Below, in pieces: positions 16,147-33,355 of a stretch of DNA of 46,274 bases (the stretch's first letter is position 1; every line of letters starts with the position of its first letter). The stretch comes from Candidatus Saccharimonadota bacterium (GTDB lineage Bacteria > Patescibacteriota > Saccharimonadia > Saccharimonadales > UBA10212). The position numbers and the translations under genes were made by a program. The notes under the pieces were generated by a model that worked only from the letters and a program-made list of their open reading frames with translations, ran no database searches and was not told the origin of the DNA. The DNA lies in contig JACRBB010000031.1 of NCBI GenBank assembly GCA_016234585.1, positions 1 to 46,274 on the forward strand. Reading direction: 5' to 3'.

Positions 16147-17406
16147 CTACTGGCTGTTGGCTATAGTTTCGACCAGTTTATCGAGCCTGACTAACTGCGT
16201 GTCATCAGAGGTGCGTTTTTTAAGCTCGGCGGAGCCCTCTTGCAGAGTTTTTTGGCTGATTACTAACCGGATTGGCGAGCCCATAAGGTCGGCGTCGGCG
16301 AACATTTCGCCGGCACTCGCGTCTCGCCGGTCATCATATAATACTTTAACGCCCGCCCCTGTCAACTCATTATAGGCTTTTTCGGCAGTCTCTAAGGCGT
16401 TTTGGGCATCACCCAATCTGGCAAGATAGACCGTGAACGGGGCTATCGACTCTGGCCAAATCAAGCCTTTACCGTCATTTAACAACTCAGCAATGGTGCC
16501 CATAGCGCGGCTGATACCTATCCCGTAACAACCCATAATTAGATTTACTGATTTACCGTGCTCGTCAACTGCCTTAAGTCCAAATGGCTCCGAGAACTTA
16601 GTCCCTAGGTTAAAGATATTTCCAACTTCAATTGCTTTAACTTCCTCTAGCTCATTGCGTACAAGTCCTAAATCTTTGATGACTTCGTCGTTAAGTACTT
16701 CTTTGTTAATCGCTACTTTCTTTTTGCGGTCTAGGTAGATAGTGTCTTCACCGGCCTCTGAAAGTGTTTGGAATTCATGGCTATATTTGCTAAAACTGCC
16801 TCCGCTGGCAGAGGTTATGAAGGTTTTATCGCCAATACCCAGACGTTCAAAAATTTTTTGATAGGCTAGCTTAGCTTTTTCGTAAAAAGCCTTGTGCTGG
16901 TCTTCGGAAATTGCGTATGAATACATATCTTTCATTAAAAATTCGCGTCCTCGCATCAAACCGCTTTTGGACCGCAGTTCGTTTCTGAATTTCGTTTGTA
17001 TTTGATATGGGGCGATTGGTAAGTCCTTATAAGAATTTATGAAATTTTTAAGAAGCGGTGATAAATTCTCTTCGTGGGAAAAACCAAGACCAAGCTCCGT
17101 ACCATTAACCAGTTTCGTCTTAAACCAATCGTCAACAACCTTGTCATCCCAACGTCCGGTTTTTTCGTAACGTTCCTTAACTTGTAACGCTGGCATTAGA
17201 ATTTCCTGGCCACCAATCGCATCCATTTCCTCGCGAACAATGTTCGCTATGTTGGTCAGGATACGCAGGCCCAGTGGCAAAAAAGTGTAAACTCCAGCCA
17301 TTTCTTTGTGCACATAACCCGCCCGGATTAAAAGCTGAGCGTTGCGGGCCGTTTCATCAGCCGGCGCGTCACGCCTTGTCTTTACAAATAGTTGGCTTCT
17401 TCTCAT
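16147..17406 (-). CDS. proS: Prolyl-tRNA synthetase, bacterial-type N-terminus but short (no large INS editing insertion)
   Basis: MRRSQLFVKTRRDAPADE…LLIRAGYVHK…GVYTFLPLG matches the bacterial ProRS N-terminus. At 419 aa it is too short to hold the ~180-aa INS domain. Confidence 0.88.
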   Translation of the reverse strand: MRRSQLFVKTRRDAPADETARNAQLLIRAGYVHKEMAGVYTFLPLGLRILTNIANIVREEMDAIGGQEILMPALQVKERYEKTGRWDDKVVDDWFKTKLVNGTELGLGFSHEENLSPLLKNFINSYKDLPIAPYQIQTKFRNELRSKSGLMRGREFLMKDMYSYAISEDQHKAFYEKAKLAYQKIFERLGIGDKTFITSASGGSFSKYSHEFQTLSEAGEDTIYLDRKKKVAINKEVLNDEVIKDLGLVRNELEEVKAIEVGNIFNLGTKFSEPFGLKAVDEHGKSVNLIMGCYGIGISRAMGTIAELLNDGKGLIWPESIAPFTVYLARLGDAQNALETAEKAYNELTGAGVKVLYDDRRDASAGEMFADADLMGSPIRLVISQKTLQEGSAELKKRTSDDTQLVRLDKLVETIANSQ

Positions 17407-18241: not shown

Positions 18242-18491
18242 ACTTAGCCTTCCGAGTTATCACAGATTATAAGCATAAAAAATGCTCCTTTGTCGGAGCC
18301 TTCTGTGGTTTTATTAATTTTAGTTGAATTATAAGATACTCCGACTGTCAAATAGGCATCGGGGTGGGCAAAGTTGAAAATATGGTTTGATATCTCATCT
18401 TGGCGAATATTATAACAGCTTTTTAGCGTAGCTGCCTATTTTTGGCAGCAGTTCAAAACCATTGCACAACTTGAGAGAGCTAGGTTCCTAC

Positions 18492-19289
18492 TCACTTGAA
18501 GTGGACACCAAAAGCGATAAGATTATTTAGCATATGTATCAGCATGCCGGCATAAAGCGCGCCGGTTTTTTCACGCAAGTAAACCAGCACCACCGATAAC
18601 AAAAATGTATCCAGCGCTGCCGCCCAAAGTAGCGGCGCTCCGTCCCCGAACTGCAGGTGGGCAGCTCCAAATATAAGACTTGTAGCCAGCAAAGCTGGTA
18701 AGAATTTTAGGCGCGAACGTAAACCAGAGTACAGATAACCGCGCACCAGCACCTCCTCGCCCAGCGGCGGCAAGATTACCAATGCTACGAAGGCTAATAC
18801 TTGGTCGAGCGATGTATTGAGAGCCTGGAAACCGACATCCTGTTTTTGGTCGGTGTTTAAGGCCGGAATCAGCGCCGTTATAACCATCACTACTATAATT
18901 AAAACGACGTAAAACGCCCCGAATCCCAACAGGCCCTTTTTTATATCTTTCCAAGCCGGAGCCCGCCCTAAACCGATTGAGGCTAGCCCCAACCCCCGGC
19001 CGCGTAAAGCCAACCACACCATAGAAACAGCTATTGCTTCAGCAATTAAAACGTAAACGAACTCCAGCGGGGTCGACCCGTCAAGAACATGGACCTCGGT
19101 TCCAGGATGCGCGATACCTACAGTAATTCCAACCAACAGTGCCGCCACCAGCTGGCTAACGATAAAAATCAAGACGGTGGTTGCAATTACTTTGACTGGG
19201 CCACCAAAATTCTTTGGCGGTTTGTTTAGCGATTTTTGCTTACCTTTTAGACGGCGCCAAAAGGGCTTTTTAGAAGAATCGTCTGACAT
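18492..19289 (-). CDS. CPBP family intramembrane glutamic endopeptidase (CAAX protease-like)
   Basis: EEVLVRGYLYS, FGAAHL and HMLNN motifs in a multi-TM protein. Confidence 0.85.
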   Translation of the reverse strand: MSDDSSKKPFWRRLKGKQKSLNKPPKNFGGPVKVIATTVLIFIVSQLVAALLVGITVGIAHPGTEVHVLDGSTPLEFVYVLIAEAIAVSMVWLALRGRGLGLASIGLGRAPAWKDIKKGLLGFGAFYVVLIIVVMVITALIPALNTDQKQDVGFQALNTSLDQVLAFVALVILPPLGEEVLVRGYLYSGLRSRLKFLPALLATSLIFGAAHLQFGDGAPLLWAAALDTFLLSVVLVYLREKTGALYAGMLIHMLNNLIAFGVHFK

Positions 19290-20454
19290 CTACGATTGTA
19301 ATTAGAGCAAAAAGCGTCAGCAGCACCGCCATGCCAGTACCGTGAATGCGTTCTTCGGCGGCGGCGCTTAACGGATGCTTGAAAAGACGAGAAAGCCACA
19401 TTACAAACAGGCGTCCACCGTCCAAGGCCGGGATTGGCAACACGTTCATCAACGCTAGGGTTAAAGAGATTATGGCAATCACCATCAGCACAAAACTAAG
19501 CCCTAAGCTACCGCCGTCCCACAGCACAGCCACAATAGCTACCGGCCCACCAACCTGAGAAGTCGCCTGTTCCTGCCCATTAGAGCGGGCCGTGTGATTG
19601 CCGGTCAGACCGCCGGCAATCAGTGAACCCAACCCGGACAAGGCGTGCCCCAGCCCCTGGAATGTCAAAACCACCAATTGTTTTGTCAGTCCTACGGCCA
19701 CAATCGGCGCGCTCCAAGTTGAACGCTGCAATGTCAAGTTAGTGGGTACTACGCCTAAGTAGCCTTTCGGGTTATTCGTTTTACTGCTGGCCTCAACTTC
19801 GGCTTTGCTAAGCAACGCGACGTTTTTTTGGACCACCTGCCCTTTATGTTTATAAGTAACCGTTACAGTTTGGCCACCAAAATATGTTGTGGCGTCATGC
19901 AGTTGCTCGGTAGTGCTAACTGCCCTGGTTTGGCTGGAGTTACTAATTTTTTGGATAACGTCCAGCGAATTTAAGCCGATTTTTGAGGCTGGTGAACCTG
20001 GGTCAACGTAACCGGCGCGGACTTCTTGTCGAACAATCTTTGTGTCGCTTTTGACGGTAAACTGGTCCTGGCCAACGGCATCAGTCGTCAAAATCTTTGG
20101 GATGCCAACTGCCGCCAAAATAGTTAGCAGCACCAGGCCGGCAATTAGGTTCATGGTCACTCCGGCCAGCATAATCTTGCTTTTTGCCCAGGTGCTGGCG
20201 GCGCCAAAACTGCCTTTACTGGTATCGCTGTCGTGTTCGCCCTTTAGTTTCACAAAACCGCCCAAAGGCAGCCAGTTCAGGCTCAAAATCATGCCGTCTT
20301 TGCGTTTTTTACCCCAAGCTCTTGGCGGGAAGCCCAGGCCAAATTCTTCAACCTTCACGCCGTTGCGGCGAGCCACGATGTAGTGGCCCCACTCATGAAC
20401 CAGCACAAGGCCCACAAATAAAATAAATCCCAGTACAGAAATAGCAATTTGCAT
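19270..20454 (-). CDS. rseP: RIP site-2 metalloprotease RseP (M50 family)
   Basis: HEWGHY (HExxH) in TM1, a central PDZ-like region, and NVLPIPALDGG near the C-terminus. Confidence 0.92.
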   Translation of the reverse strand: MQIAISVLGFILFVGLVLVHEWGHYIVARRNGVKVEEFGLGFPPRAWGKKRKDGMILSLNWLPLGGFVKLKGEHDSDTSKGSFGAASTWAKSKIMLAGVTMNLIAGLVLLTILAAVGIPKILTTDAVGQDQFTVKSDTKIVRQEVRAGYVDPGSPASKIGLNSLDVIQKISNSSQTRAVSTTEQLHDATTYFGGQTVTVTYKHKGQVVQKNVALLSKAEVEASSKTNNPKGYLGVVPTNLTLQRSTWSAPIVAVGLTKQLVVLTFQGLGHALSGLGSLIAGGLTGNHTARSNGQEQATSQVGGPVAIVAVLWDGGSLGLSFVLMVIAIISLTLALMNVLPIPALDGGRLFVMWLSRLFKHPLSAAAEERIHGTGMAVLLTLFALITIVDVRRFF

Positions 20455-20534
20455 ACAAAAACCATTATAGCCTAAAGCCCGTGGGAGTTCATTTTTAAAG
20501 CAACAGGATTTTTATACAACTTAACCATAAGCAA

Positions 20535-20563
20535 TTGCAATAATTACAAATTTAATTTATAGT
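20535..20563 (+). promoter_or_regulatory. Putative sigma70-type promoter upstream of the GC-rich cslA-glxA-like operon
   Basis: TTGCAA (20535-20540), a 17-nt spacer, then TATAGT (20558-20563), in AT-rich backbone-like sequence. A 7-bp inverted repeat follows: TACACCT (20576-20582) and AGGTGTA (20600-20606). Confidence 0.4.
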
Positions 20564-20643
20564 AATCATTTGTGTTACACCTGAGAAGATGAGTTTTATA
20601 GGTGTAGCGTGCTCGTTCAAAATTCGAGTTCCAAAAGGGAGGT

Positions 20644-22407
20644 GTGGGCTTGTCCCGCAAACCGCCAAACCGCAACTATGCCACACTGATCGGCCCCCTG
20701 ACCAAGCCACCCAGTAGGGATATGCCCTACCGGGTGCAGTACAAGAAGATGCCCACCAGTGGTGGCTTCGGCGACACCCTGATTACCCGAATCCTGGGAA
20801 TCGGCGTGCCACTGACGATGGCCTACGTCATCTACCTGCTTTTCCGGCCGGAAAACTGGCCTGTGGGTACGATGGGCAAGGTCATCACCGGCTTCGGGCT
20901 GGCCATCGCCCTGATGACGACCCTGGAGGTCTTCGCAGTTGGCCGGGCATCGCGTCTGGCCAAGTGTCCCATTCCGGTCGAACCGCAGAAGGGACATCGC
21001 GTCTGTTTCTTTACCTGCTTCGTGCCCTCCTCAGAGGACATTCACAGGCTGGAAGAGACGCTGCTGGGCATGCTCGCCCAGACGTACCATCAGATCGGAG
21101 TGGTACACATCTACGTCCTGGACGAAGGCGATTCGGATGAAGTCAAGGCACTCTGCCACAAGTTGGGTGTCGGGCACTTCAGCCGCAAGAATCGCTCCTT
21201 CCACGCCATGAGCGCGTTCAAGAACAAGTTCATGCTCCGGACCAAGTATGGCAACATCAACAGCTTCATCGCTTGGCTGAACAACGAGGACCTGCACTTC
21301 GACTTCTTCGCCGGAGTCGACTGCGACCACATCCCCAAGCCGGTATTCATCGAGAGGATGATCGGCTGGTTCCGTGATGGGAACGTGGGAGCAGTCGTGG
21401 GACCACAGACGTACGAGAACGCGTCCCCGAGCAACGCCCTTTACAGCCTGGTGGCGCGATTCGCAGAGTCGTGCCAGTTCATCTTCCACAGCGTGCTGCA
21501 GCCGGCCGGCAATCGTGCCGGATCGCCGCTGTTCGTGGGAACGAACTTCATGATCCGGGCCAGTGCCCTGAAGCAAATCGATGGCATCCAGCCGTCGGTT
21601 ACCGAAGACGCACTGACCAGTCTGGCTCTCAGCACGGCCGGCTGGAAGATCGTCTGCACTCTGGACGAACTCGCGGTGGGGCTTGGGCCTGCCACCTGGC
21701 GTGACATGTTCAAGCAGCAGCACCGCTGGAGCCTGGGCACGAATCAGATCGTGTTCCATCAGCCACGCCTGTTCCTTGGGCTTGGTTGGCGGCGCTTCTG
21801 GCACTACACGCTGATGATGAGCTACTACCCCACGGTGGCAGCCATCTTCATCCTGGGAGTGTCCAGCTGTGTCCTGTACAGCACCACCGGTACGGCCGGT
21901 CTGCGTGTGCCAATCCTCACGTGGGGAGCGCTGTACTTCGACATCCTGCTGGCCCAGATCTTCCTGTTCACCTGGAACAGGCGGCACAACGTCAGCTCCA
22001 TGGAGCCTCCGAACTCCTCGGGCTTCAGCGGACTGTTGATGGCCAGCATGTGTGCGCCCATCTACCTCGTGGCCTTCTTCCAGGCCTGGAAAGATCCGAA
22101 CAAGAACTCCAACTTCAACATCACGCCCAAGGGCAAGAAGGTCGTCAAGGACAACCTGTTGGTGTTCACAAACCACTTGATCTGGTCGGCTGTGCTGGCC
22201 GGATCGATCGCTACGGCATTCGTTTCGGGCCACACCAGCCCGTTCATGCTGATCTGGCAGTTCGTGACTCTCGGCGTCTGCGTCGGGCCGTTGGTCATCT
22301 GGCAAATCGACGCCAGAAGGAAGCATCCCAACCCATCCGGCAACCTCGAGGCACAGACCTACACCGTTCCCGACGGTGTAGGCGAAAGGGCCTCGCAGAG
22401 CATTTAG
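20644..22407 (+). CDS. cslA: Processive GT2 beta-glycan synthase, cellulose-synthase-like (CslA-like), no PilZ domain
   Basis: GT2 processive motifs are in order: VLDEGDSDE, GVDCDH (DxD), TEDALTS (TED), QQHRWSLG (QxxRW). N- and C-terminal TM bundles are present. The SD AAGGGAGG ends 1 nt before the GTG at 20644, so the in-frame TTG at 20650 is the more likely start. The segment is GC-rich. Confidence 0.85.
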   Translation: MGLSRKPPNRNYATLIGPLTKPPSRDMPYRVQYKKMPTSGGFGDTLITRILGIGVPLTMAYVIYLLFRPENWPVGTMGKVITGFGLAIALMTTLEVFAVGRASRLAKCPIPVEPQKGHRVCFFTCFVPSSEDIHRLEETLLGMLAQTYHQIGVVHIYVLDEGDSDEVKALCHKLGVGHFSRKNRSFHAMSAFKNKFMLRTKYGNINSFIAWLNNEDLHFDFFAGVDCDHIPKPVFIERMIGWFRDGNVGAVVGPQTYENASPSNALYSLVARFAESCQFIFHSVLQPAGNRAGSPLFVGTNFMIRASALKQIDGIQPSVTEDALTSLALSTAGWKIVCTLDELAVGLGPATWRDMFKQQHRWSLGTNQIVFHQPRLFLGLGWRRFWHYTLMMSYYPTVAAIFILGVSSCVLYSTTGTAGLRVPILTWGALYFDILLAQIFLFTWNRRHNVSSMEPPNSSGFSGLLMASMCAPIYLVAFFQAWKDPNKNSNFNITPKGKKVVKDNLLVFTNHLIWSAVLAGSIATAFVSGHTSPFMLIWQFVTLGVCVGPLVIWQIDARRKHPNPSGNLEAQTYTVPDGVGERASQSI

Positions 22408-22413
22408 AAGGAG

Positions 22414-24432
22414 GTGAAAACCTTGAGTGATGTAGTTTTGAGTGACGAGAGATCAGATCGCTCAACCAGGAGCGGGTCGTTCTGGCGGTGGTTCCTGATC
22501 ATGATCGCCATGATTTCGGCGGTCATGATGGCGGGCTACATAACCATCTGGGCTAACCTCGGTCGCGAACCTATCGCAGCCGCCCAGCACGGATGGCATG
22601 AGCACGTCATCAACAGCCACAGCTACACGGTCAAAAACGGCCAGTGGAACACCCCGGATCAGCCGGCTAGCCAAAAGCTAGACGACATCCATACCGCCCT
22701 GCTGAAGACCGGAAAGGTCTTCATGCTAGCGGGAAGCGGCAACAACATCAACCACTCCCACCACGAGGTCTACCAGGCCGGCATCTATGACCCGGAAACG
22801 GGTCAGACCAAGGTCCTGCGCATTCCGAACGATATGTTCTGCGCCGGCATCACCACGCTCAGCGACGGACAGTTGCTGATCGCTGGCGGCACTTCGCACT
22901 ACGAGGTGCTAAAGACCGAGGTCCAGTACGCCGGTGGCGTCATGACCATCAAGAACGAGTCGCCCGACAGCGGCACGTTCGTTCTGCCCAAGGGAACCGA
23001 GCTACGTTCACCCGGTGGCAGGTTGTACCGAACCCGGGACAGCCTTCGGGTTGACCCAGCCACCAAACAAGTGGGTCCCCGGGGAGCAGTTACGATTACG
23101 GCTTCCTCGCAGGACACGTGGGTGGATGCGGAGGCGAAAGGCGCGTCCTCGGTTTCGACCGACACGCACATCACCTACACCGTCGTTAGCGGGCTTCCCC
23201 CGGAAATTCAGTCCAACAACGTCTACGGCGTGTCTTCTTCTACCGGCCTGACGCTCGACAAGCAGGAGTTCGCGGGAGCGAGCTTCAGCTACCTGTTCGA
23301 CCCCTCGGTCGAGCAATTCACCAAGGTCGACAACCTGAAGTTCGCCCGGTGGTATCCAACCACCATCACCCTGCCCAGCGGTCGGGTTCTGGCGATTTCG
23401 GGACTGGACCAGTTTGGCCGGATCCTGCAGGGCTTCAACGAGGTATACGACCAGGTGACGCAGAAGTGGACGCTTCTGCCTCACACCAAGCTCTTCCCCA
23501 CCTACCCGGCAATGTTCGTTACCGAAAGGCCCAATACCCTGCTCTACACCGGCGGCAGCGCCGGTTACGGCAGCGACAAGATCGGCCGATCACCGGGACT
23601 CTGGAATTGGCAGACCAACGCCTTCCAAGCAATTCCCGGTTTGCGTGACAGCAACATGACGGAGACCAGTGATTCGCTTCTGCTGCCTCCGGCTAACGCC
23701 CAGCGCTACATGATCGCCGGTGGTGGTGGGGTGGGTAACTCCGAGAAGTCCACAAGCAGGACCGACATCGTCGACCTGAAGGATTCTCACCCACGCTTCA
23801 CTCCGGGTCCCGATCTGCTGACGAAGCTGCGGTACATGATTGGCACAATCCTACCGGACAACACCGTGCTCTTCAGCGGTGGCACCGCCGGTTATCGTGC
23901 CAACGGCAACAGTTACACGCACATGGCCGCCATCTACGACCCGGCCACGAACATAATGCGGCGGGTAGCTGACTCGCGCATCGGCCGCACATACCACAGC
24001 TCGGCAGTTCTGCTGCCGGACGGCTCAGTCTTCACAGCCGGCGGCGACCCGTTGTACAGCGACGCTGCCGGTAAAATCCCCGGCAGTTTCGAGCAGCGGA
24101 TCGAGATCTACAAGCCGCCCTACATGTTCCAGGGAGAAAGGCCGGTCATCATCGACGGTCCCAGCGAACTGGTGCGTGGGCAGTCTGCGGAGCTGTCGGT
24201 CTCAGCAGACCAAAAGATCACGGGTGCGCGCCTGCTTCGGCTGGGCGTCTCCACCCACACCACGGATAACGCCCAGCGTTCTGTCGAGCTGAAAATTCAG
24301 CATGACGGGACAGGAAAGCTCGGCGTCACCCTGCCCAAGAGCGGCAGATTGCTCATGGGCGGTTGGTACATGTTGTTCGTGTCCAACCAGGACGGTGTGC
24401 CTTCAGTGGCACGCATGGTCCACGTTGCGTAG
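22414..24432 (+). CDS. glxA: Membrane-anchored radical copper oxidase, galactose/glyoxal-oxidase-like (GlxA-like), kelch propeller plus DUF1929-like C-terminal domain
   Basis: N-terminal TM anchor (FWRWFLIMIAMISAVMMAGYITIW). All galactose-oxidase cofactor and ligand positions are recognisable: Cys in MFCAGITTLSDGQ, Tyr in ARWYPTTITLPSGR, Tyr-His in RTYHSSAVLLPDGSVF, His in STHTTDNAQR. The SD GAAGGAGG overlaps the GTG at 22414, so the in-frame TTG at 22423 is the likely start. Confidence 0.85.
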   Translation: MKTLSDVVLSDERSDRSTRSGSFWRWFLIMIAMISAVMMAGYITIWANLGREPIAAAQHGWHEHVINSHSYTVKNGQWNTPDQPASQKLDDIHTALLKTGKVFMLAGSGNNINHSHHEVYQAGIYDPETGQTKVLRIPNDMFCAGITTLSDGQLLIAGGTSHYEVLKTEVQYAGGVMTIKNESPDSGTFVLPKGTELRSPGGRLYRTRDSLRVDPATKQVGPRGAVTITASSQDTWVDAEAKGASSVSTDTHITYTVVSGLPPEIQSNNVYGVSSSTGLTLDKQEFAGASFSYLFDPSVEQFTKVDNLKFARWYPTTITLPSGRVLAISGLDQFGRILQGFNEVYDQVTQKWTLLPHTKLFPTYPAMFVTERPNTLLYTGGSAGYGSDKIGRSPGLWNWQTNAFQAIPGLRDSNMTETSDSLLLPPANAQRYMIAGGGGVGNSEKSTSRTDIVDLKDSHPRFTPGPDLLTKLRYMIGTILPDNTVLFSGGTAGYRANGNSYTHMAAIYDPATNIMRRVADSRIGRTYHSSAVLLPDGSVFTAGGDPLYSDAAGKIPGSFEQRIEIYKPPYMFQGERPVIIDGPSELVRGQSAELSVSADQKITGARLLRLGVSTHTTDNAQRSVELKIQHDGTGKLGVTLPKSGRLLMGGWYMLFVSNQDGVPSVARMVHVA

Positions 24433-24457
24433 CGTCCGATAAGGACATGCGCGGCAA

Positions 24458-24492
24458 GCACCCCCAAGCCATGATGGCGAGGGGGTGTTTTA
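24458..24492 (+). terminator. Rho-independent terminator after the glxA-like gene
   Basis: CACCCCC (24459-24465) pairs with GGGGGTG (24481-24487). There is an inner GCCA/TGGC stem. TTTT follows at 24488-24491. Confidence 0.6.
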
Positions 24493-24532
24493 AATTTATC
24501 AAAGGTAATTTTGGACTCATTATAAAAGCACC

Positions 24533-24583
24533 CCCGGTGCGAACGGCCATCCATGGCCACTCGCACTCGGGGGTTATCCGGTC
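24533..24583 (-). terminator. Rho-independent terminator after the GH6 gene (potentially bidirectional)
   Basis: 12-bp stem with one bulge: CCCCCGGTGCGA (24541-24552) pairs with TCGCACTCGGGGG (24571-24583). There is an inner GGCCAT/ATGGCC stem. On the minus strand it is followed by TGCTTTTAT. Confidence 0.55.
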
Positions 24584-24592
24584 CCATATGCT

Positions 24593-25573
24593 TTAGGATC
24601 CGGTTAGCTGGCTAGCCAGCTTCGGCGACCAGACACCTGCCGGCTGGCTGATGCCGTGGCAAACACCATCACTATCCCCGGGCTGTTTCACCCAGAGATA
24701 GGCGTCAACCAATGGTTGGTTGGTGCGGGTAGTCGGGCTGTCGCCCAACTTCTGCCCCGGCTGATTGCACCAGGGCTTACCGTCGTTGACCGGTGTTGGC
24801 CCAGCACCGTTCCGACTGGTGTCGATCACGAAGTGCTTGCCACCAAGCCGCTTGCTCACGGCCGTACCGTAGCGAATGCTGCGTGACGTGGTCTCGTAGT
24901 TCGCCACATTCAAGGCGAACCCGTCGGCCTCTGCCACACCGGCCTGCTTAAGTGCGTTCGCCAGCTGGGACGGATCGTCGATCCATCCAGCGTTACCCGC
25001 GTCGATGTAGACGTAGGCGTTGGACGCTCTCTTGAGCTTGCCGACCGCATAGGCCAGTAAGCTAAGATGCGCGTTGGCGTCCGTGCTGTGGCAGGCCTGA
25101 ATGGTCTGTGCCAGAGCATCCGGCTCCAGGATGATCACAACCGGGTCGTTGTTACTCATACCGACCGCGAATCGACGGATCCATGCGCGGTAGGCCGCCG
25201 GACTGGCTGCCCCTCCGGCCGATGACCCGCCGCAATCCCGGTCCGGGATATTGTAGGCCACCAGCACAGGCAGCTTGCCAAATGCCGCGACCGACTGAAC
25301 GTACTCGGCGATATCAGCCTCGAGGTACGGGTCCTTTCCGAACCACAGAGCTGACGGCTGACTGCCGATCACCTCGCGCTCCTTTGGCGTGCCGTGTGTC
25401 TGCCCATGATTTTGCGGGTCGACATACAGCTCGTAGCTGTTCAGTGGATTCGACGCGCCACTGGCACTCCTAGCGGTGGACGAACCGGAACCACCACAAC
25501 CAACAACGATCAGCGCGGTGGCGGCCATCGCCGCCACCATGGCAGCGATTGTTAGCCGTCGTACATAACTCAT
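24593..25573 (-). CDS. cslZ: Glycoside hydrolase family 6 beta-1,4-glucanase, lipoprotein (CslZ-like)
   Basis: Lipobox LIVVGC after a hydrophobic signal. GH6 blocks are present: YNIPDRDCGG, IILEPDALA, YIDAGNAGW, FALNVANY, VIDTSRNG, WCN and LWVKQPGDSDG. The segment is GC-rich. Confidence 0.88.
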   Translation of the reverse strand: MSYVRRLTIAAMVAAMAATALIVVGCGGSGSSTARSASGASNPLNSYELYVDPQNHGQTHGTPKEREVIGSQPSALWFGKDPYLEADIAEYVQSVAAFGKLPVLVAYNIPDRDCGGSSAGGAASPAAYRAWIRRFAVGMSNNDPVVIILEPDALAQTIQACHSTDANAHLSLLAYAVGKLKRASNAYVYIDAGNAGWIDDPSQLANALKQAGVAEADGFALNVANYETTSRSIRYGTAVSKRLGGKHFVIDTSRNGAGPTPVNDGKPWCNQPGQKLGDSPTTRTNQPLVDAYLWVKQPGDSDGVCHGISQPAGVWSPKLASQLTGS

Positions 25574-25634
25574 CAGACCTCACTTCGGTAGATGACGTGG
25601 GAGACTCGTTACATGCTAATTATATAATAATTAC

Positions 25635-25663
25635 ACTATATACACAATAGAGCTGAAGGTAAA
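25635..25663 (-). promoter_or_regulatory. Putative promoter for the GH6 gene
   Basis: The minus strand reads TTTACC, a 17-nt spacer, then TATAGT, in the AT-rich 95-nt gap between the frr stop and the GH6 start. Read-through from frr is equally possible. Confidence 0.3.
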
Positions 25664-25668
25664 TAACT

Positions 25669-26232
25669 TTAGACTGTAGTAATTTCTTGTTCTTTAGTTC
25701 TAACAAGATTGTCGACTTCATTTTTCTGGCCAGCCAGTAGTTCTTCAATTTGTTTTTTAAAACGTTCTAGGTCATCTTTACCAATCGACTTGTCTTTTTC
25801 GGCGGCTTCGGCGCGCCGCAGCATCTCATGGCGGATCTGGCGGGCGCTTATCATGCATTCTTCGGCTTTTTGGTTCAAGATTTTAACCATTGCCGCGCGA
25901 GACTCTGTGGTTAGCGGCGGAATTTGGATGCGCACTACCCGCCCATCGTCGGCCGGATTCAGTCCCAGAGCCTCGTTACCACGAATAGCATCACTGATAG
26001 CCTTCAGGTTACTGGGATCGAATGGAGTAATTTGTAATAAAGTGGCTTCCGGCGCGGTTATGGTGGCTGTTCCCTTAAGGGGCATTTCCTGCCCATAAAC
26101 CTCTACCTTAACATTGTCCAGCATACCCGGGTGGGCCCGGCCAGTACGGATTTTTTTAAGCTCTTCCTTAAAATGCTCCAATACGGCTTGCAATTTTGTT
26201 TTAGCTTGGTTTATTTCTTGATTCACATCCAT
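25669..26232 (-). CDS. frr: Ribosome recycling factor
   Basis: 187 aa with IRTGRAHPGMLDNVKVEVYG…LGLNPADDGRVVRIQIPPLTTESR. Backbone-like composition. Confidence 0.95.
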   Translation of the reverse strand: MDVNQEINQAKTKLQAVLEHFKEELKKIRTGRAHPGMLDNVKVEVYGQEMPLKGTATITAPEATLLQITPFDPSNLKAISDAIRGNEALGLNPADDGRVVRIQIPPLTTESRAAMVKILNQKAEECMISARQIRHEMLRRAEAAEKDKSIGKDDLERFKKQIEELLAGQKNEVDNLVRTKEQEITTV

Positions 26233-26271
26233 GAGCTATAAGTTCTTTTTAACTGATTATATTGTACCTCA

Positions 26272-26300
26272 TTGTTAATGATCAGTTTTTATTGTATAAT
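26272..26300 (+). promoter_or_regulatory. Putative sigma70-type promoter (extended -10) for the two small membrane protein genes
   Basis: TTGTTA (26272-26277), a 17-nt spacer, then TGTTATAAT-type -10 (TATAAT at 26295-26300). Confidence 0.4.
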
Positions 26301-26328
26301 TAATTTATTCGATGTCCTTCTAAAAGGG

Positions 26329-26499
26329 ATGGTCGTGTACATTTTATTTCTACTTTTTGGGATGAACACTGCTGCGGTAGGCGCAGCGCTTTACTTGCAG
26401 CTGGTCAGGAAAAACCCTGCACGCCCACTCCTTATTGCCCTGGCAATAGGTATGTGTGCTTTGGGGGGCATATTGATCGGAATTTCCATATTCTCGTGA
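26329..26499 (+). CDS. Small hydrophobic protein (56 aa, 2 predicted TM)
   Basis: The tracked ORF 26272-26499 would begin inside the promoter. The in-frame ATG at 26329, preceded by AAAGGGA, gives MVVYILFLLFGMNTAAVGAALYLQLVRKNPARPLLIALAIGMCALGGILIGISIFS. Confidence 0.45.
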   Translation: MVVYILFLLFGMNTAAVGAALYLQLVRKNPARPLLIALAIGMCALGGILIGISIFS

Positions 26500-26519
26500 G
26501 TTAAAGGAGTGCAAGCAGA

Positions 26520-26780
26520 GTGCTTGAAATACTGATCTCTCTATTGGCATACGTTATTGCATTCGTTATAGCCCATAAGGCTCACAAGCATCTACAAGAT
26601 GAGCCAATACTCCTCAAGATGTGGGCTGTAGCCCTATTCACGCTGGTAGTTGGTGTATTTATAGGAGTAGTTATTCCTATATTTGCCTACGCTGTCTCGG
26701 TCTTGCCGCTACCATCACCAGCAATGGCCATCGTGATAGCGAGTCTGCTTCCCAACCACAGGCAAATTCCACCTCGTTAG
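26520..26780 (+). CDS. Small hydrophobic protein (86 aa, ~3 predicted TM)
   Basis: GTG start preceded by AAAGGAG about 10 nt upstream. Strongly hydrophobic sequence. No recognised family. Confidence 0.5.
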   Translation: MLEILISLLAYVIAFVIAHKAHKHLQDEPILLKMWAVALFTLVVGVFIGVVIPIFAYAVSVLPLPSPAMAIVIASLLPNHRQIPPR

Positions 26781-26880
26781 GATACTAGGTTGTTATGGTA
26801 TTGATAACCATGGCAAACCCTAGCGAGGTAGTAAAAGTAATAAGTATTCGAACCTGCGGGTTGAGCCCAACTCCCCGTCT

Positions 26881-26906
26881 GCACCAGATAGAAGCTGGTG
26901 CTTTTC
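26881..26906 (+). terminator. Rho-independent terminator after the small membrane protein pair
   Basis: GCACCAG (26881-26887), a 7-nt loop, CTGGTGC (26895-26901), then TTTTC. Confidence 0.5.
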
Positions 26907-27014
26907 AATTATTTGTTCAACCAATACATCGTCATTTTAAGTCAAAAATATGTTATAATATGTACTGATCTACACCCGTAGATACCTTAAAAATCTGCAA
27001 CGAAATGGGATGAT

Positions 27015-27623
27015 ATGCCCAGGTGGGCTAAATTGGTCTTAGGGGCGGCGCTTACGTGCACGTGCTTTTTCTTGCCTTTGACACTGGTGTTGGGATCGGC
27101 AGAGAACCTGCCGCCGCCTATCCCTCACCATCCCGGCGGACATTGCACCGAGGGGGCAACGACCCCCTACCTGGTCCACATCAAGACTCCAAGCAGTGCT
27201 AGTGTGGACATCTCCAACGGCCACTTTGAGGGGAAGTGCAATCCGGCCATCGTCCTGTACCAGGTGCACTTCATGCTGGAATACGTGCCAAAGGTCCCGG
27301 ACACCGCCGGTGGCTGGGTGACGCTGAAGTACGCGATCTGTGAAAGCGCCTACTTGGACCCACCCAAGGTCACAGGCGGACTTGCCTGCCACGACCTCAG
27401 CCCCAACTTCGACGCCCCTATCCACATGAAGATCACACTGACTGCGAAGTGTGTCAAACGGCACAAGAAGTCCGCAGTAGATCTGAGGTTGTGGCGAACT
27501 CGATACTGGACAACGGCATATAACGCCCATGGCGGCGAAGCCAACTCCAGGGTCATCGACCATGATGAGATCCTCCCGTGCGTCCCCAAAAATGTACCGG
27601 GAGTCGACCCAAGCCGCCGCTAG
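27015..27623 (+). CDS. Hypothetical secreted Cys-rich protein (GC-rich gene)
   Basis: Signal-like N-terminus MPRWAKLVLGAALTCTCFFLPLTLVLGSA and 6 Cys in the mature part. No recognised domain. The antisense shadow ORF 27039-27563 is typical of GC3-rich coding DNA. Confidence 0.6.
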   Translation: MPRWAKLVLGAALTCTCFFLPLTLVLGSAENLPPPIPHHPGGHCTEGATTPYLVHIKTPSSASVDISNGHFEGKCNPAIVLYQVHFMLEYVPKVPDTAGGWVTLKYAICESAYLDPPKVTGGLACHDLSPNFDAPIHMKITLTAKCVKRHKKSAVDLRLWRTRYWTTAYNAHGGEANSRVIDHDEILPCVPKNVPGVDPSRR

Positions 27624-27724
27624 AGGTTTAATCGTGCCGACACTGTTTCCGTGATTTCACAATCGCGGGCGGTGTCGGTACGAGTTCTTTTGTTGCAGTA
27701 AGGTGAGCTATAAAGCTCCTCCTG

Positions 27725-27755
27725 CGCCAATCTGCACGGATTGGCGTATTTTTTA
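27725..27755 (+). terminator. Rho-independent terminator after the 202-aa gene
   Basis: CGCCAATC (27725-27732), a 6-nt loop, GATTGGCG (27739-27746), then TATTTTTTAT. Confidence 0.65.
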
Positions 27756-27793
27756 TGATTATAAAGTGTGATTTAAATGATTATAAGTTTAAG

Positions 27794-27829
27794 GCTCCCG
27801 CCTCCGGCCGAAGCCGGAGGACGGGGAGC
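27794..27829 (-). terminator. GC-rich hairpin after the 399-aa gene (weak U-tract)
   Basis: CCTCCGGC (27801-27808), tetraloop CGAA, GCCGGAGG (27813-27820). The stem extends further with bulges. On the minus strand it is followed by TTAAACTTATAAT. Confidence 0.4.
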
Positions 27830-27856
27830 AGTTGTCATGAATGATGGTGTTGGCGC

Positions 27857-29056
27857 CTAGCGAAAGGGCGTGTGCCGGACCTGGAAGGCCGGGAACCAGA
27901 CCCGGATGCCGTTGCTGCGCAGCGTCGCCAGTGCGGTACCGGTGTACACGTCGGTGCCGTCGGCCTTGGGAATCGTGAAGCCCACCCAGGCGCAGTACAC
28001 GGCTGTGGCACTCCGAACAGTGCACTGCCTGACATCCAGGCCACGTGCACCGGAGTACTGCCGCCTGACGGCCTTCTTGATGGCCGTCTTGGCCTTGGCC
28101 ACCGTTAGCGTGCCGGCGTTGACCCTCACCAGGATCACCTGGTTGGGGTTGGCGTGGTACTCCTGGAGCAACGGGTCCACCGTCGTACCGTCATCTGGCG
28201 GCGCGTCGCCCAGGGGATCCGGAGCGGCCGAGCTGTCGTCGCGCGCCAGGATGTCCTTGACGCTCATGAAGAGCGTGAAGGGCCGAACGCCCCGGTCGGT
28301 CTGAACGGCATCGACGCTCACCCTCAGGTACGTGGCGTTAGCCGCCGGCGTGACCGGCGTGAGCGTGTAGCAGTGGTACGCGTCCAGCGTGACCGGCACG
28401 TAGCTGTAGGCCTTGGCCATGCCGGGGACCATCAGGTCGGGGTCCTCGGAGTCACTGTAGAGCACCGCTCCGTTGATCGAAACCGTCGCTGGCAGCGACG
28501 AGTCGAAGCAGAAGTTCGCGCCGATCCCACGATGGGGACCGAGCACGGTGTACGGCTGGAGCTGGATCTTGCCACCGAAGGCGGAAACGACACCATCTCC
28601 GTTGGCATCGTGCGCCACCGTCGACGAGCCGACACCAGCACCACCCGGAGTCGCGCCGGACGGCACCGTGGTGGAACCACAGCTGCCCGGCTTGACATCG
28701 GCCTTGACCCAGGGGAACTTCGCGTGGCGGTAGACCATCTTGCCGACATACGTCGGCCCGTTGATCACCACCTTGAAGCTGCCCTTGAGGCTGCCGATCA
28801 GCGTGCCCTTAATGGGCAGCTGACGATGGATATAGTGGCCGGTGTAGACACCACGCTGCGTGAACAGCGGCGTGGAAGCCGGCAGGCAGAAGCTCTGCCC
28901 ACGGACTACGGCCGCCTGGGACTGCGAAGACGAACTGACCACGATGGGCTCAGCCGTCTTGAGAGCACCAGAAGGTGCCGACACACCGACCGCGAACGGT
29001 GCCGTGGCCAAGGCCATCGCACCGGCGGTCAGTACCAGCGTATTGCGGAGCCCCAT
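27857..29056 (-). CDS. Hypothetical secreted protein (GC-rich gene, actinobacterial-style signal peptide)
   Basis: 399 aa with signal MGLRNTLVLTAGAMALATAPFAVGVSA and 6 Cys. RBS GGAAGGGGG lies upstream. No recognised domain. The antisense shadow ORF 28154-29131 is consistent with high GC3. Confidence 0.65.
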   Translation of the reverse strand: MGLRNTLVLTAGAMALATAPFAVGVSAPSGALKTAEPIVVSSSSQSQAAVVRGQSFCLPASTPLFTQRGVYTGHYIHRQLPIKGTLIGSLKGSFKVVINGPTYVGKMVYRHAKFPWVKADVKPGSCGSTTVPSGATPGGAGVGSSTVAHDANGDGVVSAFGGKIQLQPYTVLGPHRGIGANFCFDSSLPATVSINGAVLYSDSEDPDLMVPGMAKAYSYVPVTLDAYHCYTLTPVTPAANATYLRVSVDAVQTDRGVRPFTLFMSVKDILARDDSSAAPDPLGDAPPDDGTTVDPLLQEYHANPNQVILVRVNAGTLTVAKAKTAIKKAVRRQYSGARGLDVRQCTVRSATAVYCAWVGFTIPKADGTDVYTGTALATLRSNGIRVWFPAFQVRHTPFR

Positions 29057-29295
29057 TGGGACCCCCTTCCATTGTTAGGAGGCAGAATACTAGTCATCCA
29101 TGACTTTTTAACGAACTCGTCCGAAAAGTAAGAGGCAGCTATAAGCCGCCCCTCATAAAACATCGGACATTAACTACTATAATACAATAATTAAGCTAAT
29201 AAGTCCACCAGCTCTTGATGCTATTGCCATATTATTATATAATTTTCTAATCGTCGATGAGTCACATCGGCACGTACTCCGGGAGGAGATCAAAA

Positions 29296-29412
29296 ATGAG
29301 CCCAAACTGGGTAAATATCCTGGGTTGGACGTTTGCGGAAGCCCTTCTGCTATTACTGGTCTTTATGGTGGCCGCCGGTAGAAATAACTGCTTTTTCATA
29401 AATTCAAATTAG
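29296..29412 (+). CDS. Candidate 38-aa membrane micropeptide (not in the ORF track)
   Basis: Strong SD GGGAGGAG (29281-29288) lies 7 nt upstream of the ATG. Translation is MSPNWVNILGWTFAEALLLLLVFMVAAGRNNCFFINSN*. Confidence 0.4.
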   Translation: MSPNWVNILGWTFAEALLLLLVFMVAAGRNNCFFINSN

Positions 29413-29440
29413 AGCTTAACAGATTAGAGAAGTTCCCTGT

Positions 29441-29477
29441 AAAGAAAAGAGCCTACGCCGTTATTGGCGAAGGCTCT
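29441..29477 (-). terminator. Rho-independent terminator after the 93-aa gene
   Basis: AGAGCCTaCGCC (29448-29459), loop GTTATT, GGCGaAGGCTCT (29466-29477), with one A-A mismatch. On the minus strand it is followed by TTTTCTTT. Confidence 0.55.
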
Positions 29478-29505
29478 GTTCCCTATATCCGCCTAGCGAG
29501 TGCTT

Positions 29506-29787
29506 CTAGGCCAACGAAGTCGTGCGGTCCGGCAATTTCTGCCTATCGAACTTCCTGTTGGCCTTGTCGACTTCGGCCTCAAGCTTGGTGCGGATAGTTG
29601 CGAGGGAAGCGACCTGCTGCGGGTCATCGGTCGCCTCGATACTGGCGACGATCCACCAATAGGCCTCGTTTACGACGACGTACCGGTGTTCGGTCATGTC
29701 GTTGCGGCTAAAGTACGCGCCGATGAGGCTGCCGACACATACCGTGCCGAGGGCAATTAGAAAAATCACAACCACGATCACGGTCAT
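29506..29787 (-). CDS. Hypothetical small membrane-anchored protein (GC-rich gene)
   Basis: 93 aa with N-terminal TM MTVIVVVIFLIALGTVCVGSLIGAYF, then a charged helical tail. AAGGAG lies 6 nt upstream of the ATG. Confidence 0.55.
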   Translation of the reverse strand: MTVIVVVIFLIALGTVCVGSLIGAYFSRNDMTEHRYVVVNEAYWWIVASIEATDDPQQVASLATIRTKLEAEVDKANRKFDRQKLPDRTTSLA

Positions 29788-29873
29788 GCCAAGTCTCCTT
29801 GCATACTAACTTGTAGGGAGCAAGCCGTCTAGGTAAACCTCAAAGATCACTCCGAGCTGTCTAGACTTAATTT

Positions 29874-29902
29874 ATTATATACTTTTTGGTTATTTTTGTC
29901 TA
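29874..29902 (-). promoter_or_regulatory. Putative sigma70-type promoter for the 93-aa gene
   Basis: The minus strand reads TAGACA, a 17-nt spacer, then TATAAT. Confidence 0.35.
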
Positions 29903-30086
29903 GATCTAACATTCGGGTTCGGACATCTGCCGAGCCCTGATTAGATGTTGTTTAAAAGAGGCGTCCTTGGGTGCGAGAGTTGTTTAACGAGTAAATATGC
30001 CACTGGCATATTTAGGAGGAGTTCTAGAGCAAGCCTGTTTTAAAGCAACAGCTACTCACGGTGAGGCTGCAGTCCGAGAGCTTTTG

Positions 30087-30112
30087 CATACTTTTGGCGG
30101 TCCAAAAGTATG
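30087..30112 (-). terminator. Perfect 11-bp hairpin directly abutting the tsf stop codon (no clear U-tract)
   Basis: CATACTTTTGG (30087-30097), a 4-nt loop, CCAAAAGTATG (30102-30112). Confidence 0.35.
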
Positions 30113-32449: not shown

Positions 32450-33355
32450 CTATTTGACCTTTTCGAAAACCATGCGTTGATGAGTCATGATTTCTCTTTC
32501 AAAGCACAGTCGGTTGCAGCCATACCGTAGTGATGTTATCTGGTACCTAAAGTCTTTGTCGCGTGCATAACGTGGCGCCAGCTTTACCATAAATATAAAT
32601 TTTCTAAGACTCGGCTTTTTCCAGGCGCGGCCCCATTCTTTCATGGTCTGGATGTAATCTAAGCGACCATTATTCTCGGATACCAGCTTAAAATACGGTT
32701 TTGCGCACTTTTCAATTTGACCTATGTTTGAAGGAAGCCAACTGCCTGGGTAAAACTTCTCGATATGGCCTAAAATCCATGAATCAGACAGTTTTTTAGC
32801 ATTAACATCTATGTCATTTACATTCGGGACCGATTTACCCCAAAGCATAGTCTGTAAATATAATTTTCCGCCCTTATCCAAAGAGTCTGAGCATAACTTG
32901 AAAAAATCCCTATAAATCTCTTCTTGTTTGCCAGCTTTATATTCATCGATACTACAAAAATGCTCAAAGGCACCAACACTTACTACCCCATCCACCTTGC
33001 CCACATCTTTTGGATCTACGTCTTTCCAGTCTTTGACCAACACGTTCAGACCATCGGCTTTACAGGCCCTGGCCTGCGCCGGTGAAAGTGTAAAACCGAT
33101 ACCTTTGCCGCCATGTTTCGCCGCTTCGTATAAAACCGGTCCCCAGCCGCAGCCTATATCCATAATCTTGCTTCCGGGTTTTAGCTTAATGCTATCCAGG
33201 ATAAAATCATGTTTTTTCTGTTGCGCCTGGTCCAGTGTTAGCGAAAAGTCCCCATTATACATAGCGCCAGTAATGTCAGCATGGTCCCCCAGACTGACTC
33301 GAAAAATATCATCCATATAGTCATAGGTTCGTTCTATTTCATTTTGCGTCGCCAT
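32450..33355 (-). CDS. SAM-dependent methyltransferase, cyclopropane-fatty-acyl-phospholipid synthase-like
   Basis: Motif I IMDIGCGWGPVLYEAAKHGG. Length and layout fit the CMAS family. Confidence 0.7.
   Translation of the reverse strand: MATQNEIERTYDYMDDIFRVSLGDHADITGAMYNGDFSLTLDQAQQKKHDFILDSIKLKPGSKIMDIGCGWGPVLYEAAKHGGKGIGFTLSPAQARACKADGLNVLVKDWKDVDPKDVGKVDGVVSVGAFEHFCSIDEYKAGKQEEIYRDFFKLCSDSLDKGGKLYLQTMLWGKSVPNVNDIDVNAKKLSDSWILGHIEKFYPGSWLPSNIGQIEKCAKPYFKLVSENNGRLDYIQTMKEWGRAWKKPSLRKFIFMVKLAPRYARDKDFRYQITSLRYGCNRLCFEREIMTHQRMVFEKVK

Follow-up and report, generated by a model that had tools for sequence, protein, structure and literature searches.

Introduction

The csl glycan of Streptomyces supports attachment and pellet formation. 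Its locus (SCO2836-2838 / SLI_3187-3189) comprises three genes, cslA, glxA and cslZ. The purified CslA-GlxA of S. lividans makes cellulose in vitro (PMC11022532), and CslZ is a membrane-tethered lipoprotein of glycoside hydrolase family 6 (GH6) that, together with the lytic polysaccharide monooxygenase (LPMO) LpmP, lets the glycan deposit outside the peptidoglycan (PMC9040799). In this study, we analysed a 46,274-nt stretch of DNA from a Candidatus Saccharimonadota bacterium (contig JACRBB010000031.1 of assembly GCA_016234585.1; the whole stretch is hereafter called the window), in which three adjacent genes resemble this locus. We consider it likely, overall, that these genes form an intact cslA-glxA-cslZ module residing on a flexible island in the frr-rseP spacer of Saccharibacteria and having a single foreign origin. 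What is new is the occurrence of a known machine, apparently of foreign origin, in an unexpected, genome-reduced phylum, where it was seen twice.

Gene content of the module and comparison with known systems

The three genes of the module are as follows.

20644-22407, plus strand: cslA-like gene for a glycosyltransferase family 2 (GT2) processive beta-glycan synthase, 587 amino acids (aa) from the GTG at 20644, assigned from the open reading frame (ORF), Pfam, PDB and motifs
22414-24432, plus strand: glxA-like gene for a membrane-anchored radical copper oxidase, 672 aa, starting 6 nt past the cslA stop
24593-25573, minus strand: cslZ-like gene for a GH6 beta-1,4-glucanase, a predicted lipoprotein (VVGC, Cys26), 326 aa, convergent to cslA-glxA

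The sequence-only reading of this DNA had described the three ORFs as a GT2 synthase with the D, DxD, TED and QxxRW motifs, a GlxA with its cofactor residues and a GH6 protein with a lipobox, all of which agrees with Pfam, PDB and the alignments. The CslA-like protein matches GT2 families in Pfam (Glyco_trans_2_3, E=3.8e-17), and no PilZ domain was found in it by the Pfam scan. It carries the D in LDEGD160, DCD226-228, TED320-322 and QQHRW358-362, together with a gating-loop-like FNITPK in the ORF translation and seven (2+5) predicted transmembrane (TM; hydrophobic) segments. Its top PDB match is BcsA (4HG6, E=1.7e-16), with an alignment that spans the catalytic core. An alternative in-frame start, TTG at 20650, has better spacing to the ribosome-binding site (RBS) than the GTG at 20644.

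The GlxA-like protein matches the GlxA beta-barrel (PF21110, E=2.6e-17) and the galactose-oxidase-like E-set domain (PF09118, E=8.4e-20) in Pfam and aligns end to end (residues 60-671) with S. lividans GlxA 4UNM (E=1.5e-162). The cofactor residues are in register with 4UNM, i.e. the Cys of FCAG, the Trp-Tyr of ARWYPT, the Tyr-His of GRTYHS and the His of STHTTD, and the corresponding C143, W313, Y314, Y527, H528 and H615 do not vary across an alignment of 16 sequences; in the S. lividans protein, we take these residues to be Cys121, Trp288-Tyr289, Tyr501-His502 and His589. The architecture was tested and the N-terminal anchor (one TM segment, residues 23-41), Kelch propeller, beta-barrel insert and E-set domain were all found. 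Since the match to the NCBIfam GlxA equivalog NF052501 covers model positions 31-644 of 645 and misses only the strict cut-off, the protein appears to be a divergent, full-length family member. The GlxA start given by NCBI (640 aa) seems to be placed too far downstream (22414-22510), and it cuts into the TM anchor.

The CslZ-like protein matches Glyco_hydro_6 (PF01341, E=1.6e-67), and its DRDC, EPDAL and PGDSDG catalytic regions are conserved in comparison with Mycobacterium tuberculosis Cel6 (1UOZ); its signal peptide is predicted to end in the VVGC lipobox. In alignments made without the window sequence, family-invariant columns are kept at 85 of 97 positions in CslA, 73 of 77 in GlxA and 51 of 55 in CslZ. 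Because 88-95% of these positions are retained, the csl genes look intact and constrained, which is consistent with continued purifying selection.

The module has the same three families, order and orientation as the Streptomyces locus, as had been proposed from the sequence, and most of the best 80 actinobacterial loci are alike, with cslA beside glxA and a GH6 gene adjoining. It also shares with Streptomyces the tight coupling of cslA and glxA (a 6-nt gap in the window), the GT2 motifs and absence of PilZ, the TM anchor, beta-barrel insert and full set of copper and cross-link residues of GlxA, and the lipobox of CslZ. It differs in that its proteins are 35-46% identical to those of Streptomyces, its leaders are AT-rich, its GlxA falls below the NCBI equivalog cut-off and it is housed in an ultrasmall Saccharibacterium that forms no filaments, whereas Streptomyces is a tip-growing actinomycete.

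The BcsA-BcsB cellulose synthases (Rhodobacter sphaeroides 4HG6 and Escherichia coli 7LBY), which gave the best PDB matches (E ~1e-16), share the GT2 core and motifs with the window CslA, but the latter has neither a PilZ domain nor a BcsB partner and would depend on a copper radical oxidase instead. The closest relatives outside Saccharibacteria are uncultured high-GC cslA-glxA pairs, namely L092 (DRR350542), L093 (SRR7704213), P0137-P0139 and P0290 (bootstrap 100/100 for CslA and 77/100 for GlxA). L092 and L093 share the CslA N-terminal motif Y..L.GPL...PYRV with the window, and it is also present in P0136, the CslA of a second Saccharibacteria-type contig described below. The CslA start given by NCBI for the window (557 aa) drops this motif and seems to lie too far downstream (20644-20735). 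The high-GC pairs differ from the window in GC content (72-73%, with GC at third codon positions (GC3) of 0.91-0.95), in their identity to the window proteins (42-46% for CslA and 46-50% for GlxA) and in their shorter GlxA (623-625 aa); the L092 contig record has no PF21110 match, and, unlike in the window, no adjacent GH6 gene was seen in L092. By these comparisons, the window module appears to be a divergent but complete cslA-glxA-cslZ member that fails only the equivalog score and does not have the accessory neighbourhood of Streptomyces.

Backbone and composition of the window

The backbone proteins of the window are exact matches to NCBI MBI5906888-916, which are labelled 'Candidatus Saccharibacteria bacterium'. 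The backbone genes are typical for Saccharibacteria and include those for SecA, SerRS, class I LysRS, GreA, ProRS, RseP, Frr, Tsf and S2, as well as RF1, HtrA, LCP, ParAB and heliorhodopsin. Both the protein labels and the gene content accord with the earlier suggestion that the backbone is that of a small-genome organism, possibly of the Candidate Phyla Radiation (CPR) and resembling Saccharimonadia; the backbone belongs to Saccharibacteria and is not actinobacterial.

The composition changes sharply at both ends of the island. Along the window, the GC content is 0.55-0.61 over 20.5-25.5 kb and ~0.47 on either side, and the overall values are ~60% for the csl island and ~48% for the backbone. 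GC3 reaches 0.82 in cslA, 0.77 in glxA and 0.71 in cslZ, compared with 0.51 +/- 0.05 in 31 backbone ORFs; actinobacterial GlxA genes have values of 0.80-0.98. The GC-rich module is thus compositionally foreign to the backbone (GC3 0.71-0.82 versus 0.51), as had been expected from its sequence.

Insertion site

The flanks, leaders and intergenic regions of the module are as follows.

19270-20454, minus strand: rseP (site-2 protease), native left flank, Pfam Peptidase_M50, 97-98% aa identity to the island-less relatives L001, L002 and L095
20455-20489, no strand: left remnant of the native frr-rseP spacer, aligning with the first ~30 nt of the 64-74 bp spacer of L001 and L002
20490-20643, plus strand: AT-rich cslA leader, 31% GC, with a sigma-70-like site at 20535-20563 and the RBS GGGAGG at 20637-20642
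24433-24592, no strand: convergent intergenic region, with terminator-like hairpins on both sides
25574-25668, minus strand: AT-rich cslZ leader, 36% GC; a sigma-70-like site lies at 25663-25635, and the final ~25 nt are similar to the native spacer at its right end
25669-26232, minus strand: frr (ribosome recycling factor), native right flank, Pfam RRF, lying between two GC-rich inserts and adjoining rseP in relatives

Island-less relatives were reached as Saccharibacteria contigs through the 90% protein clusters of RseP and represent three separate lineages (L001/L091, L002-L007 and L095/L096), with 91-94% aa and 86-88% nt identity to the window over seven shared genes. In all three lineages, frr and rseP are adjacent and 64-74 bp apart. 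The window is collinear with these relatives over 18489-20456 and again over 25669-26232. Both ends of the native spacer can still be recognized by alignment, one in the first ~35 nt beyond the start of rseP and the other in the last ~25 nt preceding the stop of frr. Since spacer remnants flank the island and collinearity resumes beyond it, ~5.2 kb of DNA lies inside the frr-rseP spacer. A recombination-tract scan showed no drop in nt identity in rseP near the junction and a uniformly greater divergence of frr.

The two sigma-70-like matches in the leaders are the only ones in the region and are correctly placed upstream of cslA and cslZ, although their count is not above chance. Visual inspection showed a hairpin CACCCCC...GGGGGTG, followed by Ts, after glxA; on the minus strand, the terminator scan gave a hairpin at 24540-24528, past the end of cslZ. 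No Rfam match indicating a riboswitch or other RNA was obtained in the cslA leader or the rest of the window.

Site-specific integration was considered and rejected: no tRNA gene and no terminal direct or inverted repeats were found at the island, and no integrase-like ORF was seen among the window ORFs by Pfam. As regards carriage by phage, no viral contig in the viral contig search encodes a GlxA relative, and the plasmid search yielded a single full-length GlxA copy, on a 737-kb Streptomyces megaplasmid (42.5% identity).

The abrupt shift in composition at each end, together with the finding of the exact island proteins on one contig only, could also be produced by a chimera of assembly or binning, in which an actinobacterial fragment was misjoined into a Saccharibacteria contig. 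Collinear Saccharibacteria genes are, however, present on both sides within a single contig, with spacer remnants at both junctions, and a chimera would not rejoin the same genome in register. The leaders are AT-rich, and the same rseP-cslA adjacency recurs in a separate JGI assembly, made from a different sample. The chimera was therefore rejected, and we consider it extremely improbable.

Origin of the module

The best non-self match of the window GlxA among 5.8 billion proteins is only 52% identical, and all named matches are from Actinomycetota (Solirubrobacterales, Actinoplanes, Streptomyces, Cryptosporangium and Pseudonocardia). When genomes were scanned, one for each GTDB species, 421 GlxA relatives were obtained, of which the best 80 all belong to Actinomycetota, with 41-51% identity. 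In the best 80 loci, the identities to named Actinomycetota are 35-43% for CslA, 43-51% for GlxA and 44-51% for CslZ. As the GlxA proteins of Streptomyces and Actinoplanes are also just 48% identical to each other, the window module has diverged about as far as actinobacterial orders have from one another. The scan of JGI metagenomes yielded no close relative of the window GlxA. For CslA, the best match is P0136 (52%), from the JGI Saccharibacteria-type contig, followed by P0137-P0139 (42-46%); P0137 and P0139 are located on contigs of 72-73% GC, with glxA overlapping or adjacent.

In the neighbour-joining tree of CslA, the window and P0136 are paired with a bootstrap value of 100/100, and this pair is joined with P0137-P0139 also at 100/100. 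As outgroup for the GlxA tree, eight copper oxidases outside the GlxA family were taken from a HMMER search of 1.84 billion representatives, which was also the source of the low-GC GlxA family members. The GlxA family received a bootstrap value of 100, with the window inside it and joined at 77 to the high-GC clade containing L092 and P0290; deeper nodes were weak, and the CslZ tree was poorly resolved. In these neighbour-joining trees with weak deep nodes, the window is placed as a sister of an unlabelled clade of 72-73% GC (77 for GlxA and 100 for CslA), within a GlxA family whose named members all belong to Actinomycetota.

A high GC content is not a property of the whole family, since L098 (3976-9017) carries GH6-cslA-glxA as native genes of a ~58% GC organism, with flanks of equal GC, and a GlxA gene is found on the 46% GC contig L097. 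P0300 lies in a non-Saccharibacteria context of ~58% GC, and the low-GC GlxA representative P0294 stands alone on a 2-kb contig. In composition, and possibly in taxonomy as well, the GlxA/CslA family thus extends beyond the high-GC filamentous Actinomycetota.

These comparisons support a horizontal origin of the module from a high-GC, Actinomycetota-type lineage, because the named family members are all Actinomycetota, the GC3 of the module is outlying and its closest outside relatives have 72-73% GC. The module thus falls, as the sequence-only reading had supposed, within a family whose named members are all actinobacterial. Two narrower proposals of that reading were not sustained. The module is not specifically of Streptomyces type, being 35-51% identical to named genomes and having an uncultured lineage of 72-73% GC as its sister, and a direct transfer from host to epibiont finds no counterpart in the best match of 52% among 5.8 billion proteins or in the best 80 loci of at most 51%.

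A recent, direct transfer of the whole module from a current actinobacterial (Streptomyces-like) host would account for the absence of the island from three congeners with an intact spacer and for the barely ameliorated GC3, and the order of cslA-glxA followed by the convergent cslZ is that found in Streptomyces and Actinoplanes loci. Against this, the best identity outside Saccharibacteria is just 42-52%, the best loci of the genome scan do not exceed 51%, the JGI scan gave no close relative and the Streptomyces proteins are only 35-46% identical. Furthermore, a sister copy occupies the same site in the second Saccharibacteria contig, and the AT-rich leaders are unlike those of high-GC donors. 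Such an event cannot be shown when no donor closer than 52% identity is present among the sampled proteins, and we regard it as quite unlikely. Gene flow from hosts into CPR epibionts is in general sparsely documented; according to Jaffe et al. 2021, evidence for lateral transfer is wanting between experimentally profiled epibiont-host pairs (PMC8406219).

A second copy of the island and its history

The island is not a one-off event: a second Saccharibacteria-type contig holds cslA-glxA-GH6 beside rseP, with a CslA that is the sister of the window protein (100/100). This contig (JGI 3300048101, 23,064 bp; CslA P0136) comes from an independent sample and carries genes in the order DEAD helicase-MsrA-ABC-MPG-class I LysRS-GreA-ProRS-Rce1-RseP, followed by cslA, glxA and a convergent GH6 gene. 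The second island thus has the same site by rseP, order and orientation as that of the window, and its GH6 protein is of the same length (326 aa), whereas its CslA is longer (620 aa) and 52% identical and its GlxA has 686 aa. The rseP-cslA gap, in the same orientation in both, is 177 nt in the second contig and 189 nt in the window. The presence of a second copy at the same site implies either that the acquisition predates the window lineage or that the island moves among Saccharibacteria. Because the two CslA copies are sisters located at the same site, the Saccharibacteria csl genes appear to have a single origin inside the Actinomycetota-type family, where an uncultured lineage of high GC is closest to them; on this, the CslA and GlxA trees agree.

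The metagenome scan with P0136 gave only an unrelated match of 28%, and the 686-aa GlxA was not among the best 150 matches in the HMMER search of 1.84 billion representatives. Proteins of the second contig were not found in the 90% clusters of RseP, ABC ATPase, DEAD helicase, GreA and ProRS, although these clusters do contain island-less lineages. This makes it probable that the island-less genomes are closer to the window than the second genome is, and the pattern across lineages is one of presence, absence in three lineages and presence again at the same site.

Three histories could give this pattern: (a) an old insertion followed by losses, (b) transfer between Saccharibacteria through homologous recombination in the flanks and (c) two imports into one hotspot. 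We favour a flexible island that combines (a) and (b), because the two copies agree in site, orientation, gap length and GH6 length, no site-specific machinery was found and gene replacement is visible nearby. The last point concerns the ProRS gene of L001 (2744-4003), whose product is 72% identical in aa to those of the window (16147-17406), L002 and L095, whereas the latter three are mutually 94-95% identical and the genes neighbouring the L001 ProRS gene show 93-98% identity; within this conserved block, the gene seems to have been replaced by recombination or transfer. We infer that the island is gained and lost when the conserved genes on either side of it undergo homologous recombination.

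Variation also extends to the other side of frr.

26233-30112, no strand: variable region between frr and tsf, outside the csl module but in the same hotspot, holding a second GC-rich insert (27015-29056)

In L002, the gap between tsf and frr is 39 bp, and in L095 it is occupied by different genes with 57% GC; a diverged form of the GC-rich region is present in L091/L001 (65% GC). Since this side of frr is likewise variable and GC-rich, a high GC content may be a persistent trait of the accessory DNA at the hotspot rather than a measure of time.

Proposed function

By analogy with Streptomyces, cslA and glxA would be co-transcribed from the AT-rich leader. The CslA, with its seven TM segments and its D, DxD, TED and QxxRW motifs, would polymerize UDP-glucose to a beta-1,4-glucan, acting in a complex with GlxA, which is predicted to be anchored in the membrane and, as judged from its sequence, has a complete Cys-Tyr radical copper site. 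The lipoprotein CslZ may then trim the glucan or aid its passage through the wall, giving a surface glycan that could be used for adhesion of the epibiont to a host or matrix. A CslA-GlxA synthase that extrudes beta-1,4-glucan is to be expected because the necessary sequence features are present and the two genes are only 6 nt apart; the module thus probably makes beta-1,4-glucan, and a role in adhesion or matrix formation for the epibiont is put forward as a hypothesis on the same analogy.

Evidence against the proposed history and function

Several points weigh against the reading of an intact module on a flexible island of single foreign origin. The second contig is known here from its proteins and gene layout alone, and the sole basis for the greater distance of the second genome is that its proteins are missing from the 90% clusters. 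The trees were constructed by neighbour-joining only and are weak for the backbone inside the GlxA family. The high GC3 is hard to reconcile with an old acquisition, the GC profile of the three codon positions of the island (GC1/2/3) resembles that of native genes in a genome of ~58% GC, as if recently imported, and the sister copy is only 52% identical. With regard to function, the match to NF052501 (E=3.5e-223) scores 742.5 bits, under the 800-bit cut-off, and residue 146 is Ile (window 22849-22851), where the His after the cross-link Cys (FCxGH) is conserved to at least 95% among 149 GlxA sequences. Among the scanned window ORFs, no lpmP (AA10 LPMO), SCO2833-2835 neighbour, sco or dtpA was seen, although such accessory genes do not strictly define the module; the earlier statement that Sco and DtpA are missing from the window is thus correct, and no Sco-, DyP- or LPMO-like ORF is present among these ORFs.

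The points concerning composition could be explained if the lineages of the window and of P0136 had each received a separate import into the frr hotspot, from related, unsampled donors of ~60% GC. A short residence is suggested by the codon-position profile, which equals that of the module native to the 58% GC genome, and such imports also accord with the variable, GC-rich state of both sides of frr in several lineages and with the low identity of the two CslA copies. On the other hand, the integrase, tRNA and direct or inverted repeats that would mark a site-specific hotspot were not found, the candidate donor is not sampled, and the two contigs agree in orientation, in GH6 length (326 aa) and nearly in the rseP-cslA gap. 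We therefore regard two imports as unlikely.

The points concerning function bear on another alternative, namely that the module is real but does not serve to make a glycan of the organism's own, and instead acts on the cellulose-like apical glycan of the host, with GH6 and the oxidase serving for attack or anchoring, or is decaying cargo. Such a role would fit the absence of Sco, DtpA and LpmP from the window, the replacement of the conserved His beside the cross-link Cys and the GlxA score below the equivalog cut-off. It is opposed by the intactness of the three ORFs, their complete catalytic motifs and the retention of 88-95% of invariant positions; moreover, the synthase CslA, which is needless for pure degradation, is kept in both Saccharibacteria copies. 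This alternative appears very unlikely to us, and the reading of an intact module on a flexible island is retained.

Other features of the window

The second GC-rich insert (27015-29056, GC 0.59-0.66) contains two ORFs, at 27015-27623 (plus strand) and 27857-29056 (minus strand), which encode secreted proteins with no assigned function and no Pfam or NCBIfam match. The 399-aa protein has just two homologues in 5.8 billion proteins and is 47% identical overall to its counterpart in the sister contig L091 (2054-3854), yet a stretch of ~400 nt, comprising the last ~110 codons of its gene and the downstream flank, has 93.5% nt identity to L091. This combination suggests that the protein is a mosaic, hypervariable surface protein.

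A heliorhodopsin gene is located at 8357-9190 (minus strand; Pfam E=3.2e-85), and the counterpart position in L002 and L004 is also occupied by heliorhodopsin. A methyltransferase of the cyclopropane-fatty-acid/mycolic-acid synthase family (CMAS) is encoded at 32450-33355 (minus strand; E=5e-39); the same position in the related genome L002 (6567-7760) holds a fatty-acid desaturase, making this a variable spot that concerns membrane lipids. The ORF at 42006-46127 (minus strand, 1373 aa) has no Pfam match and an odd composition, in which GC2 (0.53) exceeds GC1 (0.48) and GC3 is 0.45.

Biological significance

Little is known of the way in which CPR epibionts, Saccharibacteria included, attach to their hosts. 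Searches of open-access literature yielded no paper in which GlxA, a radical copper oxidase or an endogenous cellulose synthase is connected with Saccharibacteria, Patescibacteria or CPR bacteria, in line with the earlier supposition that the transfer of such a machine had not been described. As judged from its genes, a complete and apparently functional exopolysaccharide machine of actinobacterial type has become fixed in a reduced genome, at one locus in two divergent Saccharibacteria. The csl island is therefore a candidate adhesion or matrix factor that can be tested, and it can serve as a marker of gene exchange of Saccharibacteria with high-GC bacteria. It also extends the range of the CslA-GlxA cellulose synthase beyond the filamentous Actinomycetota and poses the question of how GlxA matures without the Sco/DtpA pathway of Streptomyces.

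More tentatively, some environmental Saccharibacteria may keep, on a flexible island, a cellulose synthase that depends on a copper radical oxidase and was obtained from high-GC (host-type) neighbours, and a host-like coat of beta-1,4-glucan may glue them to actinobacterial hyphae or disguise them there, a possibility that we put forward with considerable doubt. If true, no CPR epibiont would previously have been credited with a surface-polysaccharide adhesion machine, and the case would represent an epibiont that has adopted the tip-glycan system of its host's own clade.

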